Assembly (NCBI GenBank): GCA_965261485.1
Contig: CBDHCY010000005.1
Span: 1,228,901 to 1,292,900 of the forward strand
From: Leptospiria bacterium
GTDB lineage: Bacteria > Spirochaetota > Leptospiria > Turneriellales > CBDBES01
Direction of reading: 5' to 3'
Length of the DNA stretch: 64,000 nucleotides
The notes below the pieces were generated by a model that was not told the DNA's origin, ran no database searches, and saw only the letters and a program-made list of their open reading frames with translations. The position numbers were made by a program, and so were the translations under genes. Shown here piece after piece: positions 15,236 through 45,146 of this stretch. How positions within the stretch are numbered: the stretch's first letter is position 1; each line of letters starts with the position of its first letter.

Positions 15236-16988
15236 TCCACCCTTCGCTCAGAAATCAAAGCATCACTCGTGACTATCGGTCAGAGCACCCTCCAATCGCC
15301 ATCGCGATTGGCGATCGTCACTCTTCGCTCAGCGAGCAAGGCATCACTCGCTACTATCGGTCGCCACTCTTCGCTCAGAGATCAAAGCATCACTCGCGAT
15401 TGTCCGTCGACCTCCGCCCAGCGATCAAAGCATCACTCGCGATTGGCGGTCGGCCGTTTATCGTTGCCCTTCGAGCGAAGCATCACTCGTGACTATCGGT
15501 CAGAGCACCCTCCAATCGCCATCGCGATTGGCGATCGTCACTCTTCGCTCAGCGAGCAAGGCATCACTCGCTACTATCAGTCGCCACTCTTCGCACAACA
15601 AAGTATCACTAGCGATTATCGATCGGCACTCTTCGTACAACAAAGCATCACTCGCGACTTGTCGATCGTCACTCTCCGCTCAGAGATCAAAGCATCACTC
15701 GCGACTATCGGCGTTTTCTTCGCTCAGCGAGTAAAGCATCACTCGCGACTTGTCGATCGGCGTTTTCTTCGCTCAGCGAGTAAAGCATCACTCGCGACTT
15801 GTCGATCGGCGTGCCCTTCGCTCAGAGATCAAAGCATCACTCGTGACTGTCGGTTGGCTCTCTTCGCTCAGAGATCAAAGCATCACTCGCGACTGGCGGT
15901 CGTCACTCTTCGCTCAGAGATCAAAGCATCACTCGCGACTATCGGCGTTTTCTTCGCTCAGCGAGTAAAGCATCACTCGCGACTTGTCGATCGGCGTGCC
16001 CTTCGCTCAGAGATCAAAGCATCACTCGTGACTGTCGGTTGGCTCTCTTCGCTCAGAGATCAAAGCATCACTCGTGACTAGCGATCGTCACTCTTCGCTC
16101 AGCGAGTAAGCATCACTCGAGACTGTCGGTCGTCACCCTTCGCACAACAAAGCATCACTCGCGACTGTCGATCGTCACTCTTCGCACAACAAAGCATCAC
16201 TCGCGGCTTGTCGATCGCCACTCTTCGCCTTGCGAGCGAAGCATCATCCACAATTATCGATCGCCACTCTCCGCACAACAAAGCATCACTCGTGACTGGC
16301 GGTCGTCACTCTTCGCTCAGAGATCAAAGCATCACTCGCGATTGGCGATCGTCACTCTTCGCTCAGCGAGCAAGGCATCACTCGCTACTATCGGTCGCCA
16401 CTCTTCGCTCAGAGATCAAAGCATCACTCGCGATTGTCCGTCGACCTCCGCCCAGCGATCAAAGCATCACTCGCGATTGGCGGTCGGCCGTTTATCGTTG
16501 CCCTTCGAGCGAAGCATCACTCGAGACTATCGGTCGCCACCCTTCGCACAACAAAGTATCACTAGCGATTATCGATCGGCACTCTTCGTACAACAAAGCA
16601 TCACTCGCTACTATCGGTCGCCACTCTTCGCTCAGAGATCAAAGCATCACTCGCGATTGTCCGTCGACCTCCGCCCAGCGATCAAAGCATCACTCGCGAT
16701 TGGCGATCGTCACTCTTCGCTCAGCGAACAAAGCATCACTCGCGACTGTCGGTCGTCACTCTTCGCCCAGCGATCAAAGCATCACTCGTGACTGGCGGTT
16801 GACACTCTTTGTCTGCGAGTGCATCACTCGCGACTGTCGATCGTTTATCGTTGCCCGGAGAGCGAAGCATCACTCGTGACTGTCGATCGTCACCCTTCGC
16901 CCAGAGATCAAAGTATCACTCGCGATTATCGGTCGGCGTGCCCTTCGCCTAGCGAGCGAATCGCCATTCGTGACTGGCGGTCGACCGT
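15236..16988. repeat. GC/CpG-rich co-oriented tandem array of degenerate 42-47-bp units (about 37 units by eye), abutting the stop codon of the lipoprotein gene at 16989
   Basis: The core GCATCACTCG[CT]GA recurs every 42-47 bp (for example at 15261, 15341, 15387, 15430 ... 16867, 16913). Consensus unit: aaagcatcactcgcgactgtcggtcgtcactcttcgctcagagatc. The array has higher-order duplications (15302-15490 matches 16336-16524, and 15261-15360 matches 15481-15580). GC content contrasts sharply with the AT-rich surroundings. Confidence 0.95.
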
Positions 16989-19122: not shown

Positions 19123-19232
19123 AACATGCATGATAATTAGGGCTAACGCCCCGCTTCTAAAATTTTTGAGAAAAATGCCGCGAAGGCACGACCTATTTTT
19201 TTTAGAGAATAAACTAAGACCTAAGTCTAGTG

Positions 19233-19386
19233 TCTGTAGTTCTGTAGTTCTGTAGTTCTGTAGTTCTGTAGTTCTGTAGTTCTGTAGTTCTGTAGTTCTG
19301 TAGTTCTGTAGTTCTGTAGTTCTGTAGTTCTGTAGTTCTGTAGTTCTGTAGTTCTGTAGTTCTGTAGTTCTGTAGTTCTGTAGTTC
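19233..19386. repeat. Perfect octanucleotide microsatellite (tctgtagt / actacaga), about 19 copies
   Basis: Uninterrupted tctgtagt repeats run from 19233 to about 19386. They lie between the stop of the Rpn gene (19563) and the terminator hairpin upstream of L1. Confidence 0.97.
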
Positions 19387-19562: not shown

Positions 19563-20564
19563 CTATGGTCGTAAATGCTCAATCTCTTCTATAGAAAGAC
19601 CGGTGCTTCTTGAGATCACTTTAATAGAGAAACCCTCTTTCAAGAGACTTTGAGCTACTTCAGCCTTGCCCTTAGCCACGCCCTTAGTCATGCCCTTAGT
19701 CATGCCCTCGGTTATGCCCTCGGTTATGCCTTCGGCTCTGCCCTTAGTCATGCCCTTAGTCATGCCCTCAGTTATGCCCTTAGCTATTAGCTCGTCTGCA
19801 ATGGATCTCATATCCCCTCCTGCCTTTGGTGAAATGTATTGCCCAGCACTCTTTACAATAAAATCAATAGTAAACCCGCCAGTGCTAGTAATAATATAGT
19901 TCAATAAAACATCAAGCATTTTCTTATTTTCTTGAGAGATTCGTGCATAATAATCTTTGAAAAGATCTTCTAAGCGTGACCTGCTCGATAAAAACCAAAT
20001 ATCCTGTAGACTTTTTAAAAATGCCTGTACAGCCACAGAGAAATCGGTGAACTCTGTTTTATCTGAGCGAAGATCAAGTAATTCATAGTGAAAGTCTGGT
20101 ATGTATTTTTGTAAAGACTTTCTCAGATGCTCAGGAATCACTAAAGAACTGCTGAAGAGCGTGGGAATATCCCACTCTTTTTTTCCGTGATAAAGCACTA
20201 AAGGAATCACGGGCATTGTGCTCGTTTTATAAATTCCAGCTAAATACATGAGAAGCTGTGAATGAATATTTTTTTCTTTATACGATTTATGTTCTATCAG
20301 ACAAAAAACGCCCAGCCTTTTTGATTCCAAAGATTTCGCAGATTCTGAATCTGATTGCTTTTTGATAGGTACGCTGTAGAGAATATCAGTGAATCGTTCT
20401 TGATCTGTTGCATCAATAAAGCACCCTTTCTCTATTTGTAATTTTATAAAGTCTAGCTCTGATGTGATCTCTTTAGGCAGAGCATTTTTAAGAAAATCTA
20501 CCGCATAAGTTTTTTGTGATAAAACTTGTTTGGTTATGATGTCGTGTTGGTTTAGCTTTGCCAT
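19563..20564 (-). CDS. Rpn/YhgA-like recombination-promoting nuclease (PD-(D/E)XK putative transposase family)
   Basis: 333 aa. The N-terminus (HDIITKQVLSQKTYAVDFLKNALP ... RFTDILYSV ... FCLIEHKSYKEK...QLLMYL) matches the Rpn/YhgA-like nuclease core. The C-terminus has 5-aa repeats (GITEG/GMTKG, 15-bp units, about 19672-19790) and a helix-rich tail (AQSLLKEGFSIKVISRSTGLSIEEIEHL) typical of the family. Confidence 0.8.
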   Translation of the reverse strand: MAKLNQHDIITKQVLSQKTYAVDFLKNALPKEITSELDFIKLQIEKGCFIDATDQERFTDILYSVPIKKQSDSESAKSLESKRLGVFCLIEHKSYKEKNIHSQLLMYLAGIYKTSTMPVIPLVLYHGKKEWDIPTLFSSSLVIPEHLRKSLQKYIPDFHYELLDLRSDKTEFTDFSVAVQAFLKSLQDIWFLSSRSRLEDLFKDYYARISQENKKMLDVLLNYIITSTGGFTIDFIVKSAGQYISPKAGGDMRSIADELIAKGITEGMTKGMTKGRAEGITEGITEGMTKGMTKGVAKGKAEVAQSLLKEGFSIKVISRSTGLSIEEIEHLRP

Positions 20565-20687
20565 AAGATGTTCATCTTATAATTGATAGACAAAGCAAAA
20601 ACCATTAAAAAATACTTTTGAAAGCGTCAATGGGGATTCAAGCTCTAAAGTTTGGGCAGGGCAGAATATTACTTACTCCCGACCTGC

Positions 20688-21785
20688 GAACAAAGCATCA
20701 CTCGCGACTGTCGGTCGTCACTCTCCGCACAACAAAGCATCACTCGCGATTATCGATCGTCACTCTTCGCCCAGCGATCAAAGCATCACTCGTGACTGGC
20801 GGTTGACACTCTTTGTCTGCGAGTGCATCACTCGCGACTATCGGCGTTCCCTTCGCCCAGAGATCAAAGCATCACTCGCGATTATCGATCGTCACTCTTC
20901 GCCCAACGATCAAAGCATCACTCGTGACTGTCGGGTCGTCACTCTCCGCACAACAAAGCATCACTCACAACTGTCGGTCGTCGTGCCCTTCGCTCAGAGA
21001 TCAAAGCATCACTCGCTACTTGTCGATCGACACCCTTCGCACAACAAAGCATCACTCGCGATTGTCCGTCGACCTCCGCCCAGCGATCAAAGCATCACTC
21101 GCGATTGGCGATCGTCACTCTTCGCTCAGAGAGCGAAGCATCACTCGCGATTGGCGATCGTCGACTCTCCGCCCAGCGATCAAAGCATCACTCGCGATTG
21201 GCGATCGTCGACTCTCCGCCCAGCGATCAAAGCATCACTCGCGATTGGCGATCGTCGACTCTCCGCCCAGCGATCAAAGCATCACTCGCGATTGTCCGTC
21301 GACCTCCGCCCAGCGATCAAAGCATCACTCGCGATTATCGGTCGTCACTCTCCGCACAACAAAGCATCACTCGCGACTATCGGCGTTCCCTTCGCCCAGA
21401 GAGCGAAGCATCACTCGCGACTGTCGGGTCGCCACTCTTCGCCCAGAGATCAAAGCATCACTCGTGACTGTCGGGTCGTCACTCTCCGCACAACAAAGCA
21501 TCACTCACAACTGTCGGTCGTCGTGCCCTTCGCTCAGAGATCAAAGCATCACTCGCTACTTGTCGATCGACACCCTTCGCACAACAAAGCATCACTCGCT
21601 ACTGTCGATCGTCACTCTTCGCACAACAAAGCATCACTCGCGACTGTCGATCGTCACTCTTCGCACAACAAAGCATCACTCGTGACTGGCGGTCGCCACT
21701 CTTCGCCCAGCGATCAAAGCATCACTCGCGATTATTCGGTCGGCGTGCCCTTCGCTCTGCGAGTGCATCACTCGCGACTGTCCGT
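20688..21785. repeat. Second GC/CpG-rich co-oriented array of the same 42-47-bp unit family (about 25 units by eye), abutting the stop codon of the lipoprotein gene at 21786
   Basis: The same GCATCACTCG[CT]GA core recurs at 20694, 20737, 20782 ... 21719, 21765. There is an internal duplication (20914-21060 matches 21454-21600) and a shared segment with array 1 (20782-20838 matches 16779-16835). Orientation relative to the adjacent gene is the same as in array 1. Confidence 0.95.
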
Positions 21786-31405: not shown

Positions 31406-33952
31406 CTATCTTTGCCCGGGGAGTAGGGCACCGTATGACGCACACGTCCTCCAATCAGTGACACCATTCGTTGTAATTGTGGGAATACACAACTTAACCG
31501 CGGGTAATTGCATGTTGCTGCCTAGGTCCCAAGCTTTTGTGTTATCAGCAGCACTATGTGAGAGACCACCGTCGGGATCGGTGTTACTTATGGCTTGTAG
31601 TTGCACTAGCGTAAGACCTGTTATACCTGATGGGTCAACTACATCCGCGGCATTACCCAATGCCCGATCGGCGACGAGCGTTTGTCCAGAGATACTTTGA
31701 GGTGCATCGGTATTCCAGTAAGACCTCATGACTGTCAAAGAAGAAAGAATTCGCCCCACCAAACCGCCAGAATAAGAAAAAGGATCTACGAAAGAAGATA
31801 CACCACTAGAACCACTAAAATAACTATTCACTATTATTGAAGAAGCTCCCAAATAACCCACCAGACCACCAGAATAAGAAGGAGCAGCAGCAGAAGAAGA
31901 AGAGACTTCACCAGAACCACTAAAATAACTATTCACTATTCTTGAATCACCAGCAGAATAACCCACCAGACCACCAGAAGCAGAATAAGAAGCAGCAGAA
32001 GAAGAAGAAGAAGAAACTCCACCAGAACCACTAAAATAACTATTCACTATTTTTGAAGCACTCGCAGAAAAACCCAGCAGACCACCTGAATAAGCATAAG
32101 AAGAAGAAGAAGAGGAGACTCCACCAGAACCACTAAAATAACTATTCACTATTATTGGAGCACTAGCAGAAGAACCCACCAGACCACCGGCAATAGTAGA
32201 AGGAGTAGTAGAAGGGGAGGAAGAGAAGGAAGATACACCACCCAATCCACTAAAATAGCTGCTAATCATCGTCAAAGAAGAAAGAGTTCGCCCCACCAAA
32301 CCGCCAGAAGAGGAAGCATAAGAAGAAGAAGAAGAAGAGACTCCACCAGAACCACTAAAATAACTATTAGTTATTGTCAAAGAAGAAGTGTTGGAAAGTC
32401 CCACTAGACCACCTGAATAAGAAAAAGAAAAAGAAGAAGAAGAGACTCCACCAGAACCACTAAAATAACATTTGATTATCCTCAAAACACCTTCAGAAGA
32501 ACCCACCAGACCACCTAAAGAAGAAGCAGCAAAAGAAGAAGAAGAGACGACTCCACCAGAACCACTAAAATAACTATTTATTATCGTCAAATCATCTTCA
32601 GAAGAACCCACCAGACCACCGGCAATAGTAGAAAGAGTAGTAGAAATAGAAGAAGCAAATACTGATCCTGAAATGATTCCCACATTGTGAATCTCTACAG
32701 ACCCTTTGACAAAACCAAATAAACCCGCATAAACATCACTTGTGGAAGAATCAATATTCACCCAAAGATTCCCAATGGTATGGTTGTTACCCTCGAAAAT
32801 GCTAGTAAATGGAGCAGATGCATCGCCAATAGGCACCCAGCTTGTGTCTTTGCCCGTGTCCGTATTAATCACCTTCACCTTCTCACCTGCATCATCAGTG
32901 TTTCCGTTGGCATTTTTATCAATGCCCTTCGGCGTCGTATCGATTTTTCCATTTCTGTTTGCATCAAGCAAACTCAAAAGATCAATATGGGCTGTTAACT
33001 CATAGCCATTGCAAACGTTGTTTGGACAACCATCAACATTACCTCTTGCTTGTTCTGCTGCCGAGCTTTTATAACTTGCACCTGCCAAATCATGACGCAT
33101 GTTATCGAGCATTTCAGCAGTATATATCTCAATCAAGCCATCACCATCATGATCGGCCTTAAAGCCTCCGCCAGAAATTTCAATACCTGAAGCATAATTA
33201 AAACTCGAATCATAAGCAAATAGCTTATAATAATAATGGGTTGAGGCTACTCTAGCCCCTGCCTCGGAATCTTTAAATGTAGTTGTATTTGAGTTATACA
33301 CCATGATTGAGCTACCAATTGAATTAGAATTTGCATAATCTTGCCCTGTTGTTGGAACATATGATATTGAATTTTCACTCCTTAAAATCAAAATTTTATA
33401 AAAATTAGCACCGATAGGGTTGCTCCAAGCTAGAGTTATGCCCTCATTATCTAAATTTAAAAACCTACTATTTATGACATTTTTGGGTGATGTGGGTGAT
33501 ATGGTACCTCCTTCAAATTCAACGCCCGAAGCATAATTAAAGCTACTGTCATAAGCAAAAATCTTATAAAAATAAGTGGCACCTTCTGTAATTTTCATGT
33601 CTGTAAAAGTTGACATCTCTGCGTGATGCACCACTTTTGAGCCACCAATCAAATCAACATTTACATAGCTTTTCCCTACCTCAGGAGTATCTGATATTGA
33701 GCTTTCACTCCTTAAAATTAAAACCTGAGAAAAATCAACATCGGTAGGGTTGCTCCAGCTTAACATTATTTCGTTTGAATTACGCCGAAAAACAAAATTT
33801 GTGATATTGCCTGGTGGGTTCTCATCTAAGATTATTGGTAATCTATCATTTGGTAGATCACTCAGATCTTTTTTAACACAAAACGCACTAAAGATGATGC
33901 AAACTAAGACTAAACCTCGGGTAACCTTAAACAATGATTTAACTACACTCAT
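31406..33952 (-). CDS. Surface lipoprotein with two FN3-like domains, DHDGDG motif and 9 GLUG-type repeats with Ser tracts (paralog L3)
   Basis: 848 aa. Signal MSVVKSLFKVTRGLVLVCIIFSAFC, two copies of the [IM]LSWSNPTD/ITLAWSNPI...YFYK[IL]FAYDSSFNYASG module, and nine GGL[VL]G modules. The C-terminus is ...CASYGALLPGQR. Confidence 0.85.
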   Translation of the reverse strand: MSVVKSLFKVTRGLVLVCIIFSAFCVKKDLSDLPNDRLPIILDENPPGNITNFVFRRNSNEIMLSWSNPTDVDFSQVLILRSESSISDTPEVGKSYVNVDLIGGSKVVHHAEMSTFTDMKITEGATYFYKIFAYDSSFNYASGVEFEGGTISPTSPKNVINSRFLNLDNEGITLAWSNPIGANFYKILILRSENSISYVPTTGQDYANSNSIGSSIMVYNSNTTTFKDSEAGARVASTHYYYKLFAYDSSFNYASGIEISGGGFKADHDGDGLIEIYTAEMLDNMRHDLAGASYKSSAAEQARGNVDGCPNNVCNGYELTAHIDLLSLLDANRNGKIDTTPKGIDKNANGNTDDAGEKVKVINTDTGKDTSWVPIGDASAPFTSIFEGNNHTIGNLWVNIDSSTSDVYAGLFGFVKGSVEIHNVGIISGSVFASSISTTLSTIAGGLVGSSEDDLTIINSYFSGSGGVVSSSSFAASSLGGLVGSSEGVLRIIKCYFSGSGGVSSSSFSFSYSGGLVGLSNTSSLTITNSYFSGSGGVSSSSSSYASSSGGLVGRTLSSLTMISSYFSGLGGVSSFSSSPSTTPSTIAGGLVGSSASAPIIVNSYFSGSGGVSSSSSSYAYSGGLLGFSASASKIVNSYFSGSGGVSSSSSSAASYSASGGLVGYSAGDSRIVNSYFSGSGEVSSSSAAAPSYSGGLVGYLGASSIIVNSYFSGSSGVSSFVDPFSYSGGLVGRILSSLTVMRSYWNTDAPQSISGQTLVADRALGNAADVVDPSGITGLTLVQLQAISNTDPDGGLSHSAADNTKAWDLGSNMQLPAVKLCIPTITTNGVTDWRTCASYGALLPGQR

Positions 33953-34001
33953 TCAAACATCTCTATCTATTATAAAATATACCTCAACTCTTCACGGAAG
34001 A

Positions 34002-34030
34002 TTATCTCATGGAAGATATATTTTGTCAAA
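34002..34030 (-). promoter_or_regulatory. Sigma-70-like promoter candidate for L3 (TTGACA-N17-GATAAT)
   Basis: On the minus strand, ttgaca (34030-34025), a 17-nt spacer, then gataat (34007-34002), about 50 nt upstream of the L3 ATG at 33952. Confidence 0.45.
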
Positions 34031-34104
34031 TATAAAAATAATAAAGTTGATCAAAAAAAATATTTTTTCATGGCAGAATATCTACCCAAAATCTCAGTTC
34101 AGCC

Positions 34105-36676
34105 CTATCTTTGCCCGGGGAGTAGGGCACCGTATGACGCACACATCGCCCAATCAGTGACACCATTCGTTCTAATTGTAGGAATACACAACTTAACCGC
34201 GGGTAATTGCGTGTTGCTGCCTAGGTCCCAAGCTTTTATGTTATCAGCAGCACTATGTGAGAGACCACCGTCGGGATCGGTGTTACTTATGGCTTGTAGT
34301 TGAACTAGCGTAAGACCCGTCGTACCTACTACCTCCACAGTACCTGATTCACCCACCAAAGCAGCTGAGTTGCTACTCTCAACATCACCCTGCGCCCGTT
34401 TTGGGTCTTGATTAGTGCCGCCAACACTTTGAGGTGCGTCGGTGTTCCAGTAAGACCTCATGACCATCAAAGGAAAAGGAGTTCGCCCCACCAAACCACC
34501 AAAATAAGAATTAGAAGGATCTATAGACAAAGATACACCACCAGAACCACTAAAATAACTATTAGTTATTGTCAAAGCATCTCCAGAATAACCTACCAGA
34601 CCACCTGAAGTAGAAGAAGAAGTAGAAGAAGAAGTAGAAGAAGAGACTCCACCCGCACCGCTAAAATAACTATTAACTATTTCTGAAGCACCAGCAGAAG
34701 AACCCACCAGACCACCTGAAGAAGAAGTAGAAGAAGAAGAAGAAGAAACCCCAGCAGAACCACTAAAATAACTATTAACTATCGTCAAAAAACTATCAGA
34801 AGAACCCACCAGACCGCCTGAATAAGAAGAAGAAGGAGAAGAAGAAGTAGAAGAAGAGACTCCACCCGCACCGCTAAAATAACTATTAACTATTATTGAA
34901 ACACTAGCAGAAGAACCCACCAGACCGCCTGAATAAGAAAAAGGAGAAGAGGAAGAAAAAACCCCAGCAGAACCACTAAAATAACTATTAATTATCGTCA
35001 AATCATCTCCAGTATAACCCACCAGACCACCTGAATAAGAAAGAGAAGAAGAAGAAGAAGAAGAGACTCCACCCGAACCACTAAAATAACTATCAACTAT
35101 CGTCAAAAAACTATCAGAAGAACCCACCAGACCGCCTGAATAAGAAGAAGAAGAAGAAGAAGAAGAGACTCCACCCATACCGCTAAAATAACATTTGATT
35201 ATCCTCAAAACACCTTCAGAAGAACCCACCAGACCACCTAAATAAGAAGCAGCAAAAGAAGAAGAAGAGACGACTCCACCAGAACCACTAAAATAACTAT
35301 TTATTATCGTCAAATCATCTTCAGAATAACCCACCAGACCACCGGCAATAGTAGAAGGAGTAGGAAATAGAAGAAGCAAATACTGATCCTGAAATGATTC
35401 CCACATTGTGAATCTCTACAGACCCTTTGACAAAACCAAATAAACCCGCATAAACATCACTTGTGGAAGAATCAATATTCACCCAAAGATTCGCTATGGT
35501 ATGGTTGTTACCCTCAAAAATGCTAGTAAATGGAGCAGATGCATCGCCAATGGGCACCCAGCTTGTGTCTTTGCCCGTGTCCGTATTAATCACCTTCACC
35601 TTCTCACCTGCATCATCAGTGTTTCCGTTGGCATTTTTATCAATGCCCTTCGGCGTCGTATCGATTTTTCCATTTCTGTTTGCATCAAGCAAACTCAAAA
35701 GATCAATATGGGCTGTTAGCTCATAGCCATTGCAAACGTTGTTTGGACAACCATCAACATTACCTCTTGCTTGTTCTGCTGTCGAGCTTTTATAACTTGC
35801 ACCTGCCAAATCATGACGCATGTTATCGAGCATTTCAGCAGTATATATCTCAATCAAGCCATCACCATCATGATCGGCCTCAGAGCCTCCGCCAGAAATT
35901 TCAATACCTGAAGCATAATTAAAATTCGAATCATAAGCAAATAGCTTATAATAATAATGGGTTGAAACTACTGTAGCTCCCCTATCTTTAAATGTAGTTG
36001 CATTTGAGTTATACACCATGGTTAAGCTACCAATTGAATTAAAATTCGCATAATCTTGCCCTCTTGTTGGAACATATGATATTGAATTTTCACTCCTTAA
36101 AATTAAAATTTTATAAAAATTAGCATCGATAGGGTTGCTCCAAGCTAGAGTTATGCCCTCATTATTTAAATTTAAAAACCTACTATTTATGACATTTTTG
36201 GGTGATATGGGTGATATGGGTGATATGGTACTTCCTTCAAATTCAACGCCCGAAGCGTAATTAAAGCTACTGTCGTAAGCAAAAATCTTATAAAAATAAG
36301 TGGCACCTTCTGTAATTTTTATGTCTGTAAAAGTTGATATCTCTGCGTGATACATCACTTTTGAACCACCAATCAAATCAACATTTACATAGCTTTTCCC
36401 TACCTCAGGAGTATCTGATATTGAGCTTTCACTCTTTAAAATTAAAACCTGAGAAAAATCAACATCAGTAGGGTTGCTCCAGCTTAATATTATTTCGTTT
36501 GAATTACGCCGAAAAACAAAATTTGTGATATTGCCTGGTGGGTTCTCATCTAAGATTATTGGTAATCTATCATTTGGTAGATTACCCAGATCTTTTTTAA
36601 CACAAGACGCACTAAAAATGATGCAAACTAAGACTAAACCTCGGGTAACCTTAAACAATGATTTAACTACACTCAT
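34105..36676 (-). pseudogene. GLUG-repeat lipoprotein paralog L4, split by a 2-bp deletion (frameshift)
   Basis: Two overlapping ORFs, 35321..36676 (N-terminal 451 aa) and 34105..35406 (C-terminal part with 9 GLUG modules), together align end to end with L3. At about 35355-35365 L4 reads ggagtaggaaat, where L3 (about 32645-32660) reads agagtagtagaaat. The frame shifts from ...ASSISTTLSTIAGGLVG to ...ASSISYSFYYCRWSGGLF-stop. Confidence 0.8.
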
Positions 36677-36724
36677 TCAAACATCTCTATCTATTATAAA
36701 ATATACTCCAACTCTTCACGGAAG

Positions 36725-36753
36725 ATTATCTCATGGAAGATATATTTTGTCAA
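36725..36753 (-). promoter_or_regulatory. Sigma-70-like promoter candidate for L4 (TTGACA-N17-GATAAT)
   Basis: Same motif pair as upstream of L3: ttgaca at 36753-36748 and gataat at 36730-36725 on the minus strand. Confidence 0.45.
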
Positions 36754-36828
36754 ATATAAAAATAATAAAATTTATCAAAAAATTTATTTTTTCATGGCAG
36801 AATATCTACCCAAAATCTCAGTTCAGCC

Positions 36829-39561
<2,733 letters not shown>

Positions 39562-39699
39562 TCAAACATCTCTATTTATTAGAAAATATACCTCAAACTC
39601 TTCATGGAAGATATATTTTGTCAAATATAAAAATAATAAAGTTGACCAAAAAAATTATTTTTTCATGGCAGAATATCTACCCAAAATCTCAGTTCAGCC

Positions 39700-42303
39700 C
39701 TATCTTTGCCCGGGGAGTAGGGCACCGTATGACGCACACATCGCCCAATCAGTGACACCATTCGTTCTAATTGTAGGAATACACAACTTAACCGCGGGTA
39801 ATTGCGTGTTGCTGCCTAGGTCCCAAGCTTTTATGTTATCAGCAGCACTAGGTGAGAGACCACCGTCGGGATCGGTGTTACTTATGGCTTGTAGTTGAAC
39901 TAGCGTAAGACCCGTCGTACCTGCTACCTCCACAGTACCTGATTCACCCACCAAAGCAGCTGAGTTGCTACTCTCAACATTACCCTGCGCCCGTTTTGGG
40001 TTTTGATCAGTGTCGCCAATACTTTGAGGTGCATCGGTGTTCCAGTAAGACCTCATGATCGTCAAAGAAATAGAAGAACCCACCAGACCACCTGAAGAAG
40101 AAGAAGAAGAAGAAGAAGAAGAAGAAGCAAATACACCACCCAATCCACTAAAATAACTATTTATTATCGTCAAAGCAGCTTCAGAAGAACCCACCAGACC
40201 GCCTGAATAAGAAAGAGAAGAAGCAGAAGAAGAGGAGGAGGAGGAAGAAACCCCAGCAGAACCACTAAAATAACTATTAATTATTTTGAGAGTACTAGTA
40301 GAATAACCCACCAGACCACCTGAATAAGAAGAAGAACCAGAAGAGAAGGAAGAAACCCCAGCAGAACCACTAAAATAACTATTAACTATTGTCAAAGAAA
40401 TAGAAGAACCCACCAAACCACCTGAAGAAGAAGAAGAACCAGAAGAAGAAGAGATTCCACCAGAACCACTAAAATAACTATTAGTTATTGTCAAAGTACT
40501 AGTAGAAGAACCCACCAGACCACCTGAACGAGAAAAAGAAGGGGAAAAAGAAGATACACCACCCAATCCACTAAAATAACTATTAACTATCGTCAAAGAA
40601 CTATCAGAAAACCCCACCAGACCGCCTGAGGTAGAAGAAGAGGAAGAAGAAGAAGAAGAAGAGGAAGAAGAGACTCCACCAGAACCACTAAAATAACTAT
40701 TAGTTATTGTCAAAGCACCTTCAGGAGAACCCACCAGACCACCTGAATAAGAAAAAGAAAAAGAAGAAGAAGTAGAAGAAGAGACTCCACCAGAACCACT
40801 AAAATAACTATTAGTTATTGTCAAAGCACCTTCAGAAGAACCCACCAGACCACCTGAATAAGAAAAAGAAGAAGAAAAAGAAGAAGAAGAAGAAGAAGAG
40901 ACTCCACCAGAACCACTAAAATAACACTTAATTATCGTCAAAGCACTAGCAGAATAACCCACCAGACCACCTGAATAAGAAAAAAAAGAAGAAGAAGAAG
41001 CAAATACTGATCCTGAAATGATTCCCACATTGTGAATCTCTACAGACCCTTTGACAAAACCAAATAAACCCGCATAAACATTACTTGTGGAAGAATCAAT
41101 ATTCACCCAAAGATTCGCGATGGTATGATTGTTGCCCTCAAAAATACCCGTAAAGGCATTAGTGTTAGAATCACCAATGGGCACCCAGCTTCTGTCTTTG
41201 GCAGTATCAATCACCTTCACCTTCTCACCTGTATCTGACGTATCGTCATCGGCATTTTTATCAATGCCCTTCGACGTCGTATCGATTTTTCCATTTCTGT
41301 TTGCATCAAGCAAATTCAAAAGATCAATATGGGCTGTTAACTCATAGCCATTGCAAACGTTGTTTGGACAACCATCAACATTACCTCTTGCTTGTTCTGC
41401 TGCCGAGCTTTTATAACTTGCACCTACCAAATCATGACGCATGTTATCGAGCATTTCAGCAGTATATATCTCAATCAAACCATCACCATCATGATCGGCC
41501 TTAGAGCCTCCGCCAGAAATTTCAATACCTGAAGCATAATTAAAACTCGAATCATAAGCAAATAGCTTATAATAATAATGGGTTGAAGCTACTGTAGCCC
41601 CTGCCCCAGAATCTTTAAATGTAGTTGCATTTGAGTTATACACCATGGTTAAGCTACCAATTGAATTAAAATTCGCATAATCTTGCCCTCTTGTTGGAAC
41701 ATATGATATTGAATTTTCACTCCTTAAAATTAAAATTTTATAAAAATTAGCATCGATAGGGTTGCTCCAAGCTAGAGTTATGCCCTCATTATTTAAATTT
41801 AAAAACCTACTATTTATGACATTTTTGGGTGATATGGGTGATATGGGTGATATGGTACCTCCTTCAAACTCAACGCCCGAAGCATAATTAAAGCTACTAT
41901 CATAAGCAAAAATCTTATAAAAATAAGTGACACCTTCTGTAATTTTTATATCTGTAAAAGTTGATATCTCTTCGTGATACATCACTTTTGAGCCACCAAT
42001 CAAATCAACATTTACATAGCTTTTCCCTACCTCAGGAGCATCTGATATTGAGCTTTCACTCCTTAAAATTAAAACCTGAGAAAAATCAACATCGGTAGGG
42101 TTGCTCCAGCTTAACATTATTTTGTTTGAATTACGCCGAAAAACAAAATTCATGATATTGCCTGGTGATATCTCATCTAAGATTATTGGTGATGTATTAT
42201 TTGGTAGATTACTCAGATCATTTTTGACACAAGACGCACCAAAAATAATGCAAACTAAGACTAAACCTCGGGTGATCTTAAACAATGATTTAACTATACT
42301 CAT
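39700..42303 (-). CDS. Surface lipoprotein with two FN3-like domains and 9 GLUG-type repeats (paralog L6)
   Basis: 867 aa. The N-terminal roughly 330 aa are almost identical to L5. It has nine GGLVG modules and poly-Ser runs of up to 11 residues. The C-terminus is ...CASYGALLPGQR. Confidence 0.85.
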   Translation of the reverse strand: MSIVKSLFKITRGLVLVCIIFGASCVKNDLSNLPNNTSPIILDEISPGNIMNFVFRRNSNKIMLSWSNPTDVDFSQVLILRSESSISDAPEVGKSYVNVDLIGGSKVMYHEEISTFTDIKITEGVTYFYKIFAYDSSFNYASGVEFEGGTISPISPISPKNVINSRFLNLNNEGITLAWSNPIDANFYKILILRSENSISYVPTRGQDYANFNSIGSLTMVYNSNATTFKDSGAGATVASTHYYYKLFAYDSSFNYASGIEISGGGSKADHDGDGLIEIYTAEMLDNMRHDLVGASYKSSAAEQARGNVDGCPNNVCNGYELTAHIDLLNLLDANRNGKIDTTSKGIDKNADDDTSDTGEKVKVIDTAKDRSWVPIGDSNTNAFTGIFEGNNHTIANLWVNIDSSTSNVYAGLFGFVKGSVEIHNVGIISGSVFASSSSFFSYSGGLVGYSASALTIIKCYFSGSGGVSSSSSSSFSSSFSYSGGLVGSSEGALTITNSYFSGSGGVSSSTSSSFSFSYSGGLVGSPEGALTITNSYFSGSGGVSSSSSSSSSSSSSTSGGLVGFSDSSLTIVNSYFSGLGGVSSFSPSFSRSGGLVGSSTSTLTITNSYFSGSGGISSSSGSSSSSGGLVGSSISLTIVNSYFSGSAGVSSFSSGSSSYSGGLVGYSTSTLKIINSYFSGSAGVSSSSSSSSASSLSYSGGLVGSSEAALTIINSYFSGLGGVFASSSSSSSSSSSGGLVGSSISLTIMRSYWNTDAPQSIGDTDQNPKRAQGNVESSNSAALVGESGTVEVAGTTGLTLVQLQAISNTDPDGGLSPSAADNIKAWDLGSNTQLPAVKLCIPTIRTNGVTDWAMCASYGALLPGQR

Positions 42304-42827
42304 TCAAACATCTCTATTTATTAGAAAATATACCTCGATTTTTCATGGAAGATATATTTTGTCAAATATAAAAATAATAAAGTTGATCAAAAAGTTTATT
42401 ATTTCATATATAATCAACCTCACTATTGGTGACGAGACCTAAAAAATCGAGCTATACGATATTTTACAGATTTTTAGGTAAATTATTTATCTACAAGTTA
42501 AATTGTAAAACAGCTTCTCCGGTAATTTTATTGAAATAAAAATTTTTAAAAAAATCTTCTAAAAGAGGAGGTGCATACGCTATAAAAGATAAAAAATAGT
42601 GTATCAATTGTTTCTAAAATTAAAGATCTCTTAGTTCTATAAAAAAAATACAAATTTAAGTGCCCGAGCTACACCAAAAAAAGTAAACAAAAAAATAAAA
42701 ATCTACAATAATATCTTGAGAAAAAGTACACACTCATGAACTTAAACCTACAACATAAAAAATTCATATAAAAGATAAAAGATCTTGTCCTTCTACAAAA
42801 ACTTTAATAAGGAAACCATAGATATCT

Positions 42828-45146
42828 ATGAAACATCCCGTGACTGTAATAACATCACAAGATATTCCTATTCTAGGAGTATCTCTAAACAAGAGTGAAT
42901 TTAAATTACCAAAAATAAAACATCAATTTTCTATCCATAAAGAGCAATTAACTAATAAAAAATCCACCATAATTGAGATACAATTTACTAAAGAAGCCTC
43001 CTATAATCAACTTAAACTTGATTTTTATATTAAACATATCAACAATATCAATATATTTTTTTCACATGATAATATATTTTGGTTTCGTATTCCCATTCGA
43101 TCAATCACAAATAAAGAAAATTCTACTACGCTAAGGTTACCTTTAATACGATCTAAATATTTACAGATTGTTATTTCTAATATAGAGATACTCAACTCTT
43201 TATCGGGCTCTATCTCTAAATCTGTGGATATTCATTTTGAAAGTTCTTCCAATAAAGATCGTTTATGGGTGCCTGAAAATCTAATTGATAAAAGAGAAGA
43301 TTATGGTTGGTCTCCCAATACAAAGCAACAATCTCAAGATGAATTTGTAATGCTTGATCTGGGAGATACTTATTACATTCATGATATTAGCCTAAGGGCA
43401 ACAAAAGCAGGTTTAACCAATTTTCCTAAAAATTTTTTAATCGAATTATCTAAAGATAAAAATAATTGGGATACGGTGGTCAGGGAAGGAAATTTTTCAG
43501 CTGCTCCACTATCTTGGTATCGATGGTCTGATCTTTTATGCCACGTTAGATATATAAAAATTAAGATCATCGAAATTAATATCAAGAAACAACCATTTTA
43601 TGAAATTTTAAAACTAGATATCTTTGCAATACCTGACAATGAGATAACTGAATGGGGAAAAAATTCTAATCATCAATGTGAAGCAAGTGAAATAAGACCT
43701 GGGCCTGTTCGTTTTGCAGAACTCAATAGTGTCCACCCCCTCCGTGCTGTTCAAGCTAACGACCCTCGATTAAAACATGGAACTACGACACGCCCAGGAA
43801 TTTTTAGAATTGCTAAAGATAACGAAAGTACCCCCATGATCGCTTTACAATCAAATGATTCAAGAATTACTTCCGCCACAGAGCAAAAAGAAGGCATCAT
43901 TCGTCTTGCGAAAGATAAAGAATCAATTCAGGGTGCCGCTCTTCAGTCAAATGATTCCAGGTTGAGAATCTCTAGCACTAAATTTCCAGGTATTATACAA
44001 CTCGCTGAAAATAAATCAGTGAGCCCTGGATATGCTGTACAATCCAATGATGATAGACTACGGTTTGCTTCAACGACTTGGCCTGGTATTATTCAATTAG
44101 CGAAACACGGAGAAATACATCAAGATAAGGTAGTTTTATCGGATGACCCGCGTTTGTTAGAAGCAAATGAAGAGACAAAAGGTCGAGTCAGATTCGCCAG
44201 AGATAAAGGAAAGGAGCCATTTACAGCTGTTCAAGGGGATGACTCTAGATTAACTTTATGTACGGATAAAAGAGTAGGTTTGGTCAAATTTGCGAATCTT
44301 AATCAAAAAAAAGAATTTTTAGCCGTTCAAAGTAATGATCCTAGGCTAGAAAATGCAAGAGCCTCCCTACCTCATCAACATGATTATGCATCCAAAAATC
44401 ATATTTTAAATTCTCATGAAGGAGCCCTTAATTTAACGATAACTAAAAAAATTAAAAATAATTTTAAATATAATTTAATTGATTTACAAAGCTTTCCTTT
44501 ATCTGTCCAAAATAAAGAAGGTATGAGTGCTGCTTTTCAAGGTGGAGTTGTGATTGAAGGCAATGAAGAGCCTGCACTTCATACATTTTCAAAAACAAAT
44601 GTAGCCTTAAAAGCAAAATCAAAAAATAAACCAGCTGGTATTTTCTTTTCTGAAAAAGATTTTAGCCTTCATTTGCCCGCAAAACTTGATGAATTAATGG
44701 GTTCATCTAAATCAATTTTAGCTGAGGGAGATGCTGTATTTCGTCAAAATATCTCTTTCGAAAACGGACTTTTTATCGCAATCTCTTGGTCTATTTTTTC
44801 TGACGAACTTTTTGTTGATGGTGACCTCTTAACAATACAAGATAACTTAATCTGTAAGCTAAAGAGCAACCATCAACCATTTATTGGTGTTTTTATTAAA
44901 GAACCTCCATTCTATTTGTCCCAGACTGCAGAGCAAGAAAGTGTTGTAAAAATTGCTATTTTAGGAGTGATAAATATTCGAGTTAAAGGTAAGATTAACT
45001 CAGGAGATTGGATCGGTTACCTTGATGACGAACCTGGTATCGCACGGCAAATCAATCCAGTGCAAAAACAACATGGTTTTGCTGTTGCAATGGAATCGTC
45101 TGGTAAGGAAACAGAAAAGTTAATTCCTTGTTTACTTAAACGTTAA
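42828..45146 (+). CDS. F5/8 type C (discoidin) domain protein with seven 32-aa tail-fibre-like repeats
   Basis: 772 aa. Discoidin-like segment (WSPNTKQQSQDEFVMLDLGDTYYIHDISLRA...FPKNFLIELSKDKNNWDTV). Then 7 x 32 aa of G[IV]xR[LF]A...A[VL]QSND[SP]RL (about 43690-44390). Confidence 0.7.
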   Translation: MKHPVTVITSQDIPILGVSLNKSEFKLPKIKHQFSIHKEQLTNKKSTIIEIQFTKEASYNQLKLDFYIKHINNINIFFSHDNIFWFRIPIRSITNKENSTTLRLPLIRSKYLQIVISNIEILNSLSGSISKSVDIHFESSSNKDRLWVPENLIDKREDYGWSPNTKQQSQDEFVMLDLGDTYYIHDISLRATKAGLTNFPKNFLIELSKDKNNWDTVVREGNFSAAPLSWYRWSDLLCHVRYIKIKIIEINIKKQPFYEILKLDIFAIPDNEITEWGKNSNHQCEASEIRPGPVRFAELNSVHPLRAVQANDPRLKHGTTTRPGIFRIAKDNESTPMIALQSNDSRITSATEQKEGIIRLAKDKESIQGAALQSNDSRLRISSTKFPGIIQLAENKSVSPGYAVQSNDDRLRFASTTWPGIIQLAKHGEIHQDKVVLSDDPRLLEANEETKGRVRFARDKGKEPFTAVQGDDSRLTLCTDKRVGLVKFANLNQKKEFLAVQSNDPRLENARASLPHQHDYASKNHILNSHEGALNLTITKKIKNNFKYNLIDLQSFPLSVQNKEGMSAAFQGGVVIEGNEEPALHTFSKTNVALKAKSKNKPAGIFFSEKDFSLHLPAKLDELMGSSKSILAEGDAVFRQNISFENGLFIAISWSIFSDELFVDGDLLTIQDNLICKLKSNHQPFIGVFIKEPPFYLSQTAEQESVVKIAILGVINIRVKGKINSGDWIGYLDDEPGIARQINPVQKQHGFAVAMESSGKETEKLIPCLLKR

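Follow-up and report, generated by a model that had tools for sequence, protein, structure and literature searches.

Paralogous families of surface lipoproteins that vary by recombination and by repeat length are known from Borrelia (Vsp/Vlp and vls), Treponema pallidum (tpr/tprK), and Mycoplasma (Vlp/Vsa). Here, we describe an array of four large paralogous genes, L3 to L6, at positions 31406-42303 of a 64,000-nucleotide stretch of DNA from a Leptospiria bacterium (contig CBDHCY010000005.1, positions 1,228,901 to 1,292,900; hereafter, the window), whose products would be lipoproteins with a head built of GLUG repeats. The array is like the families above in its many lipoprotein paralogs, tandem arrangement, mosaic blocks, and in-frame variation of repeat length, but it is unrelated to them in sequence and fold, does not pair one expression site with silent cassettes, and has a combination of its own, an FN3 stalk with a GLUG helix. 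A second parallel is the lpl cluster of Staphylococcus aureus (nuSa-alpha island), where diverged lipoprotein paralogs with their own signal peptides likewise lie head to tail and have grown in place; those proteins, however, are unrelated, and the ones of the array are much larger, modular, internally repeated, and show clear exchange between copies.

At the level of the protein, the closest described relatives are the GLUG beta-helices of the IgA1 metalloproteases of Streptococcus pneumoniae and Gemella haemolysans (N-terminal domain 2, NTD2; 6xja, 7jgj, and 7uvk) and of Bacteroides ovatus BACOVA_03286 (3n6z), which are alike in repeat motif and right-handed fold. These GLUG domains gave the only significant sequence-profile match as well as the best fold match, and the profile match to the IgA1 proteases falls within the region described as their beta-helix NTD2 gating domain (PMC9637739). 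Unlike the IgA1 proteases, the array proteins have no M26 protease domain, no G5 domain, and no LPXTG anchor, and their helix forms the C-terminal head of a lipoprotein on an FN3 stalk, with more and nearly identical rungs, with poly-Ser loops, and in dozens of gene copies.

The array copies are mosaics of one another

The four paralogs lie head to tail on the minus strand, with the coordinates and lengths that the initial annotation had given. The first gene is L6 (39700-42303, 867 amino acids), followed by L5 (36829-39561, 910 amino acids), L4 (34105-36676), and, as the last gene, L3 (31406-33952, 848 amino acids), and every copy has its own intergenic region of 138 to 152 bp, itself repeated along the array. 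L4 is frameshifted into two open reading frames (ORFs; 35321-36676 and 34105-35406, 451 and 433 amino acids): at about 35354-35373, it lacks 2 bp ("TA") relative to L3, whose counterpart is 32631-32652, in a context without homopolymer or simple repeat. This deletion splits the reading frame, so L4 is a pseudogene in the assembly unless the indel is an error. Within the coding sequence of L6, a run of eight T residues (T8; 40973-40991) lies where the helix cap meets the first rung, the low-complexity junction equivalent to that where L4 bears its deletion; it is the sole long homopolymer in the four genes. Together with two shorter members, L1 and L2, elsewhere in the window, the six paralogs span 14.4 kb (22.5% of the window), in line with the share of about a quarter proposed before.

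Sliding-window comparison of the aligned copies bore out the patchy identity that had been read from the sequence. L5 and L6 are 99 to 100% identical in two blocks (alignment columns 151-1100 and 1301-1450); in the acidic loop between them, which in L5 is unique and longer, identity falls to 49 to 71%. The 5' 1 kb of L5 is ~99.6% identical to L6. Between the promoter and about column 1700, L3 and L4 show 94 to 100% identity, with an identical acidic loop and a 15-bp promoter insertion common to these two copies only. In the 3' linker (columns 2600-2750), by contrast, L4 is 91 to 99% identical to L5 and L6 and 33 to 65% identical to L3. A linker insertion of the ESSNSAALVGESGTVEVV type is common to L4, L5, and L6, whereas L3 keeps the short form that is seen in other genera. 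The two derived characters are thus in conflict, since the promoter insertion joins L3 to L4 and the linker insertion joins L4 to L5 and L6. Accordingly, L4 is a hybrid, with an L3-like 5' part and a linker and tail that are L5/L6-like.

Statistical tests support this picture. In a maximum chi-square analysis of all ungapped columns, rung region included, which makes the breakpoint column approximate, L4 matched L3 rather than L5 at 104 sites against 27 to the left of column 1717 and at 55 against 127 to the right (sites where L3 and L5 differ; chi2 = 73.7, reached by 0 of 1000 permutations, p < 0.001), and further triplets were significant as well. Because alignment within the rungs is ambiguous, the Fisher tests, the PHI-like test, and the tree tests that follow used only columns outside the rung region. 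Differences between L5 and L6 number 4 in 991 positions of the flank versus 28 in 120 of the loop (Fisher p = 1e-24), those between L3 and L4 number 44 in 1491 of the 5' part versus 43 in 128 of the linker (p = 3e-27), and those between L4 and L5 number 79 in 499 of the middle versus 13 in 430 of the 3' part (p = 9e-12). The pairwise homoplasy index (PHI)-like test of neighbor incompatibility on the unambiguous columns gave p < 0.0002. In maximum-likelihood trees with outgroup paralogs, the 5' 1327 columns joined L5 and L6 (support 100/99), and approximately unbiased (AU) tests rejected L4 with L5 (p-AU = 1e-5) and L4 with L6 (p-AU = 1e-27), whereas the 3' 330 columns placed L4 with L5/L6 (98/96) and rejected L3 with L4 (p-AU = 0.0027). 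Synonymous divergence (dS) between L5 and L6 jumps from 0-0.015 in the flanks to 0.39 in the loop, a jump for which selection on the protein cannot account.

Recombination among the copies is thus statistically supported. Gene conversion, which the initial annotation had proposed, and unequal crossing-over are not told apart by these tests; the mosaicism part of that proposal stands, on four tests, and conversion as such is not separable. We also considered whether one unequal crossover, joining L3 and L5 when the array had three copies, could fully account for L4. Such an event predicts the position of L4 and its L3-type promoter, but the rungs follow no single breakpoint: the rung region and the last rung depart from it, so several events are needed for L4. 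Donors elsewhere in the genome for the L3 linker or the L5 loop were looked for and none was found above ~80% identity. A 9-bp in-frame repeat, TGGGTGATA on the plus strand, which encodes SPISPISP, has an extra unit in L4 (36199-36228) and L6 (41826-41855) relative to L3 and L5, a pattern that cuts across the grouping of L3/L4 versus L5/L6.

A large family with a probable recent local expansion

The array lies within a 2.13-Mb contig of a 2.21-Mb genome (33% GC). The family is much larger than the six paralogs counted in the window. A genome census with four module queries returned 78 ORFs of at least 150 amino acids that share at least one module and together make up 180 kb (8.1% of the genome); the full architecture (middle, GLUG, and C-terminal parts) was found in 45 ORFs. 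Further arrays exist, for example, eight head-to-tail genes of 875 to 1171 amino acids at C5:1944479-1973087. Besides these, a set of ~20 genes in the genome has only the N-terminal FN3-like module in common.

Over their 5' 900 nt, the array copies are 93 to 100% identical to one another, and the next paralogs in the genome reach at most 80%. In three related genera, no such array stands alongside the Fe-S oxidoreductase gene that neighbors the array here. That the copies are each other's closest relatives and that the related genera have no array at this gene argue for a recent local expansion. We therefore favor, as the probable reading, that L3 to L6 arose by recent tandem expansion at this site, within a single branch of a very large family that is specific to this lineage and whose beta-helix proteins would be anchored by lipid and probably exposed at the surface. 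The family is narrow in its distribution: the C-terminal tail occurs in three of four genera of the same family in the GTDB taxonomy and in 0 of 147 further genomes searched from the class. The closest genomes that carry the family are metagenome-assembled genomes (MAGs) named "Leptospiria bacterium" (OZ253494.1) and "Spirochaetota bacterium" (CBDBLF01), which agrees with the spirochaetal origin guessed from the letters alone. Among the 358 homologues found, none is informatively named, the sole source name listed being "hypothetical protein." Literature searches returned no paper on a GLUG-based lipoprotein family in spirochaetes, as had been supposed, and nothing relevant on GLUG function beyond the IgA1 protease structures.

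Rungs are shuffled between copies and carry (TCT)n tracts

Each copy contains 9 (L3, L4, and L6) or 10 (L5) repeat units of 33 to 40 amino acids, the last one short, at 31712-32620 in L3, 34444-35343 in L4, 37168-38211 in L5, and 40039-40971 in L6 (all minus strand). The rung consensus is GGLVGxSxxxLTIxNSYFSGSGGVSS, followed by a run of Ser. The first two rungs of L4 match those of L3 (98 and 94% identity), but past these, there is no positional orthology among copies, and best matches often fall at other positions or within the same gene: rungs 3 and 6 of L4 match rung 8 of L5 (95 and 94%), rung 1 of L6 resembles rung 3 of L5 (96%), and rung 5 of L4 resembles rung 7 of the same gene (93%). 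Rung 9 of L4 is nearest to rung 9 of L3.

The Ser runs of L3 to L6 are written almost entirely with one codon (TCT in 164 of 174), forming pure tracts of 5 to 11 units in most rungs of the four rung regions; no such tract occurs in L1 or L2. Where two rungs are nearly identical, the differences are mostly 3-nt indels and TCT/TTT changes inside these tracts. Such 3-nt indels are the signature of replication slippage, which changes the length of a loop in frame. All of the coding repeats, triplet (TCT)n or 9-bp units, are indeed in frame.

It is possible, though we think it rather doubtful, that these features together amount to a genome-wide system of combinatorial surface variation, in which recombination among dozens of genes and independent in-frame (TCT)n changes in nearly every rung would let each cell lineage continuously retune many poly-Ser loops, maybe glycosylated ones, on the face of the helix, in a reduced-genome organism that is possibly a symbiont and gives 8% of its genome to this family.

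Predicted architecture of the array proteins

Each copy has the same order of parts: a signal peptide up to Cys25, a disordered tether of ~25 residues, two FN3-fold modules, DxDxDG/EF-hand-like motifs, an acidic loop whose length varies among copies, the GLUG beta-helix, and a Cys-containing tail. The motif DHDGDGLIEIYTAEML is found in all copies, and the shared architecture first described for L3 to L6 (a lipoprotein-type start, this motif, a variable loop, and 9 to 10 modules of about 35 amino acids) agrees with both the sequences and the unit counts.

All copies start MS(V/I)VKSLFK(I/V)TRGLVLVCIIF(G/S)A(S/F)C, where a charged n-region (K5, K9, and R12) and a hydrophobic h-region lead to FGAS (L5 and L6), FSAS (L4), or FSAF (L3) directly before Cys25, after which polar residues follow. 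Across the family, 44 of the 45 full members have an N-terminal hydrophobic stretch that ends in Cys, with several types of signal peptide, and the genome encodes both Lgt and LspA. Position -3 of the lipobox is Gly or Ser, not Leu, a departure from the classical L-x-x-C. The looser spirochaetal lipobox rule accepts G/S-A-S before the Cys, whereas the classical rule does not. Because of this departure, and of a Phe at position -1 in L3 to which we return below, we regard lipidation of the array proteins as likely rather than certain.

A Pfam scan recovered the GLUG profile PF07581 above its cut-off of 20.5 bits in L3 (44.5), in the 3' ORF of L4 (41.1), in L6 (28.5), and in L2 (22.5), but gave no match in L5 despite ten clear units, which we take as a scoring artefact of its Ser-rich composition. 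Since L5 escapes the profile, automated annotation may overlook some of these proteins. NCBIfam returned no family for any paralog.

We modeled the full L6 protein with AlphaFold2 from 83 homologues (predicted local distance difference test score, pLDDT, 84.9; predicted template modeling score 0.78). The model contains a helix (residues 3-22), a disordered stretch (23-47), two beta-sandwiches (51-148 and 163-265, pLDDT 77-94), a cap region (270-385), and a regular solenoid (387-762) with pLDDT above 90, followed by a poorly predicted tail (770-867). A second model, of residues 268-867, had a pLDDT of 85.9. Foldseek searches with the N-terminal part of L6 gave tandem FN3 pairs as the best matches (1qg3 and 3lpw; E ~1e-7, probability 1.0), and the top 50 matches were all FN3 tandems or FN3-containing proteins. 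The predicted fold thereby supports two FN3-type beta-sandwich modules in L6. With residues 268-867, the best match was the B. ovatus "putative IgA1 protease" 3n6z (E = 1.2e-6), followed by the Gemella and pneumococcal IgA1 proteases (probability 1.0) and then by generic right-handed beta-helices at non-significant values. A profile built from the family alignment and compared to the PDB likewise led to IgA1 proteases of the streptococcal type, with matches in their beta-helix domain (E = 2.6e-9 for 6xja and 7jgj; also 7uvk). As modeled, the GLUG head would be a right-handed beta-helix of 9 to 10 rungs, like the solved GLUG domains.

The tail of the array copies is conserved, contains Cys, and ends in LLPGQR. 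Across the 45 full members, nearly every sequence closes with C(A/T)SYGxL(L/I)xGQR at, or a few residues from, the C-terminus, and this motif is conserved across genera; AlphaFold2 gives no confident prediction for the tail, for which a disulfide loop and a sorting or anchoring signal are candidate roles.

Beta-helices also serve as catalytic scaffolds in lyases, depolymerases, and tailspikes, and the array proteins could on that basis be lipid-anchored enzymes, or enzyme-like binders, of polysaccharides or host glycoproteins, with the copies providing substrate range. The weaker Foldseek matches do include PL6 lyases, polygalacturonases, and phage depolymerases, and the adjoining gene bears a discoidin (F5/8 type C) carbohydrate-binding domain. 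These weaker matches, however, are of low probability (E > 0.05), and all significant ones are to non-catalytic GLUG beta-helices; no catalytic family of Pfam or NCBIfam was matched; and the rungs are near-identical low-complexity repeats with no obvious conserved catalytic groove. We consider an enzymatic role improbable.

Promoter-like sites differ between the copies

Upstream of L4, we found a promoter-like site on the minus strand (36725-36753; TTGACA-17-GATAAT with an upstream TG, 11 of 12 consensus positions), whose -10 box lies inside the 15-bp insertion (within 36712-36739). L3 has a site of the same structure (34001-34029, minus strand, 11 of 12), with the insertion within 33988-34015; in both genes, the insertion supplies the near-consensus -10 box. 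L6 has a weaker site (42338-42365, minus strand; TTGACA-16-AAAAAT, 10 of 12), and the intergenic region of L5 (39562-39699) contains a -35 hexamer but no scoring -10. Runs of six to eight T residues lie upstream of the -35 hexamer, outside the spacer. No intrinsic terminators were predicted between the copies. These consensus matches suggest that the copies may be unequally expressed, possibly with read-through from one to the next; the broken copy L4 holds one of the two best promoter matches.

Promoters of apparently unequal strength, mosaic blocks common to the copies, and a non-functional L4 that could be a donor are all features that would fit programmed antigenic variation of the vls/tprK/vmp type, in which one copy is rewritten from silent donors or a single copy is expressed at a time. 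We nevertheless hold this to be very unlikely, and nothing observed points to expression of one copy at a time. Cassette-type systems (vls, tprK, and pilE/pilS) have one expression site and silent, truncated cassettes, whereas all four copies here, L4 included, are complete at the 5' end, where a promoter-like region precedes a start codon and an intact signal peptide, and there are no promoterless cassettes and no cassette-type flanking direct repeats. In the intergenic regions and among the scanned neighbors, we noticed neither an invertible element nor a recombinase gene or frame-switching repeat, although no search aimed at inverted repeats was made. Phase-variable frame switching does not fit either, as the repeats are triplets or 9-bp units and the L4 frameshift lies outside a repeat. 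The ratio of nonsynonymous to synonymous divergence (dN/dS) is not raised.

Reliability of the assembled array

In a MAG such as this one, both the mosaic and the frameshift could be artefacts of assembly or polishing in a repeat-rich region, and the near-identical 1-kb tracts of L5 and L6 together with a lone 2-bp indel are of a kind that mis-polishing can produce. We judge this explanation highly improbable. The contig is 2.13 Mb long; each block is long and consistent within itself; no homopolymer surrounds the 2-bp deletion; and arrays of this kind are numerous in both this genome and related ones. The copies, moreover, differ by many substitutions, by indels, by rung sets, and by promoters, too much for a trivial duplicate, so that the objection raised at the outset, an assembly duplication, was not borne out.

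An origin by tandem duplication alone, after which the copies diverged independently and became patchy through uneven constraint, would suit the loop, rungs, and linker, which are plausibly under less constraint, but its probability is close to negligible, as the conflict between 5' and 3' topologies in the AU tests, the rise of dS from ~0 to 0.39-0.7 within one gene pair, the counts of differences, and the clash between the linker insertion (L4 to L6) and the promoter insertion (L3 and L4) reject it unless the assembly is wrong.

Genomic surroundings of the array

The array is flanked by housekeeping genes (LpxA and a CCG/4Fe-4S oxidoreductase) on one side and by a discoidin-domain protein on the other. 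The latter, a protein of 772 amino acids encoded on the plus strand at 42828-45146, has an F5/8 type C (discoidin) galactose-binding-like domain and is likely, judging by this domain, to be another surface or carbohydrate-binding protein.

The two remaining paralogs, L2 (21786-23723) and L1 (16989-18998), both on the minus strand, are shorter subfamily members of the same layout, with one FN3-like N-terminal module and six rungs, and without poly-Ser tracts. Directly 3' of L1 and L2 lie tandem arrays of a ~46-bp unit (15319-16937 and 20686-21731, with ~31 and ~23 copies, respectively), which are GC-rich (~49% versus a background of ~30%). Between L1 and L2, a perfect 8-bp microsatellite, TAGTTCTG, is repeated ~20 times at 19228-19386, adjoining a gene for an Rpn-family recombination-promoting nuclease/putative transposase (19563-20564).

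Discussion

We interpret L3 to L6 as a probable recent expansion within a large family of anchored beta-helix proteins, and several observations weigh against parts of this interpretation. Curated sequence profiles do not support the FN3 and EF-hand assignments. Of the profile matches that the initial annotation had anticipated, the GLUG one was recovered above cut-off, FN3 was recovered by predicted fold and not by Pfam, and the EF-hand appeared only below threshold. More precisely, PF00041 (fn3) matched none of the whole proteins at E <= 0.01 and none of the isolated modules at E <= 10, although some relatives (P0041, P0081, and P0101) do match it. EF-hand_5 at DANRNGKID reached E = 3.9e-4 and 20.2 bits, short of its cut-off of 25.9, while DHDGDGLIE, at the DHDGDG motif (41470-41496 in L6, minus strand), fits the DxDxDGxIE pattern but has Thr at position 12. 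In L3, codon 24 (33878-33880) encodes Phe rather than Ser just before the lipobox Cys, which is unusual at -1 and might impair lipidation of this copy. By segment, dN/dS ranges from 0.2 to 1.1, with no signal of diversifying selection. The position of the L4 breakpoint is approximate, and the ambiguous rung alignment confines most of the tests to the remainder of the genes. Last, the near-identical tracts, the L4 frameshift, and any ongoing variation all rest on one assembly; an exact-protein look-up with LpxA for a second strain returned none, and an exact 30-mer from the intergenic region returned none among metagenome contigs.

With these points in mind, the protein and its variation can be pictured as follows. 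A lipid anchor and tether would carry a stalk of two FN3-fold domains, then a cap with two DxDxDG/EF-hand-like motifs and the acidic loop, then the GLUG beta-helix as a head, and last the Cys tail. Homologous recombination within the array, by unequal crossing-over and/or gene conversion, would have made the L4 hybrid and homogenized L5 and L6 around their divergent loop. Whole rungs would be duplicated, deleted, and exchanged, while slippage in the pure (TCT)n tracts would produce poly-Ser loops of differing length in most rungs. Each copy would be served by its own promoter region, and the 15-bp indel would give L3 and L4 their near-consensus -10. We infer that the proteins are probably exposed on the surface, may act as adhesins or ligand-binding proteins, and may vary to the benefit of the population; the "host-interacting" and "variable surface" standing that spirochaetal parallels had suggested for them is one that they may have.

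Overall, this is a clear but fairly ordinary fast-evolving family of surface proteins, and its mechanism, made up of duplication, exchange, and slippage, is textbook; the finding is of value for description and comparison, not as a new concept. What it adds to the repertoire of recombining surface proteins is an uncharacterized family in which an FN3 stalk joins a lipid anchor to a GLUG head, in a little-known, uncultured, small-genome family of Leptospiria. As the GLUG motif has almost no functional literature, a well-behaved stand-alone GLUG helix with a stalk would be a good object for structural and binding work. For the organism itself, that 8% of a 2.2-Mb genome is given over to this one family strongly hints that surface interaction and variation are central to its lifestyle.

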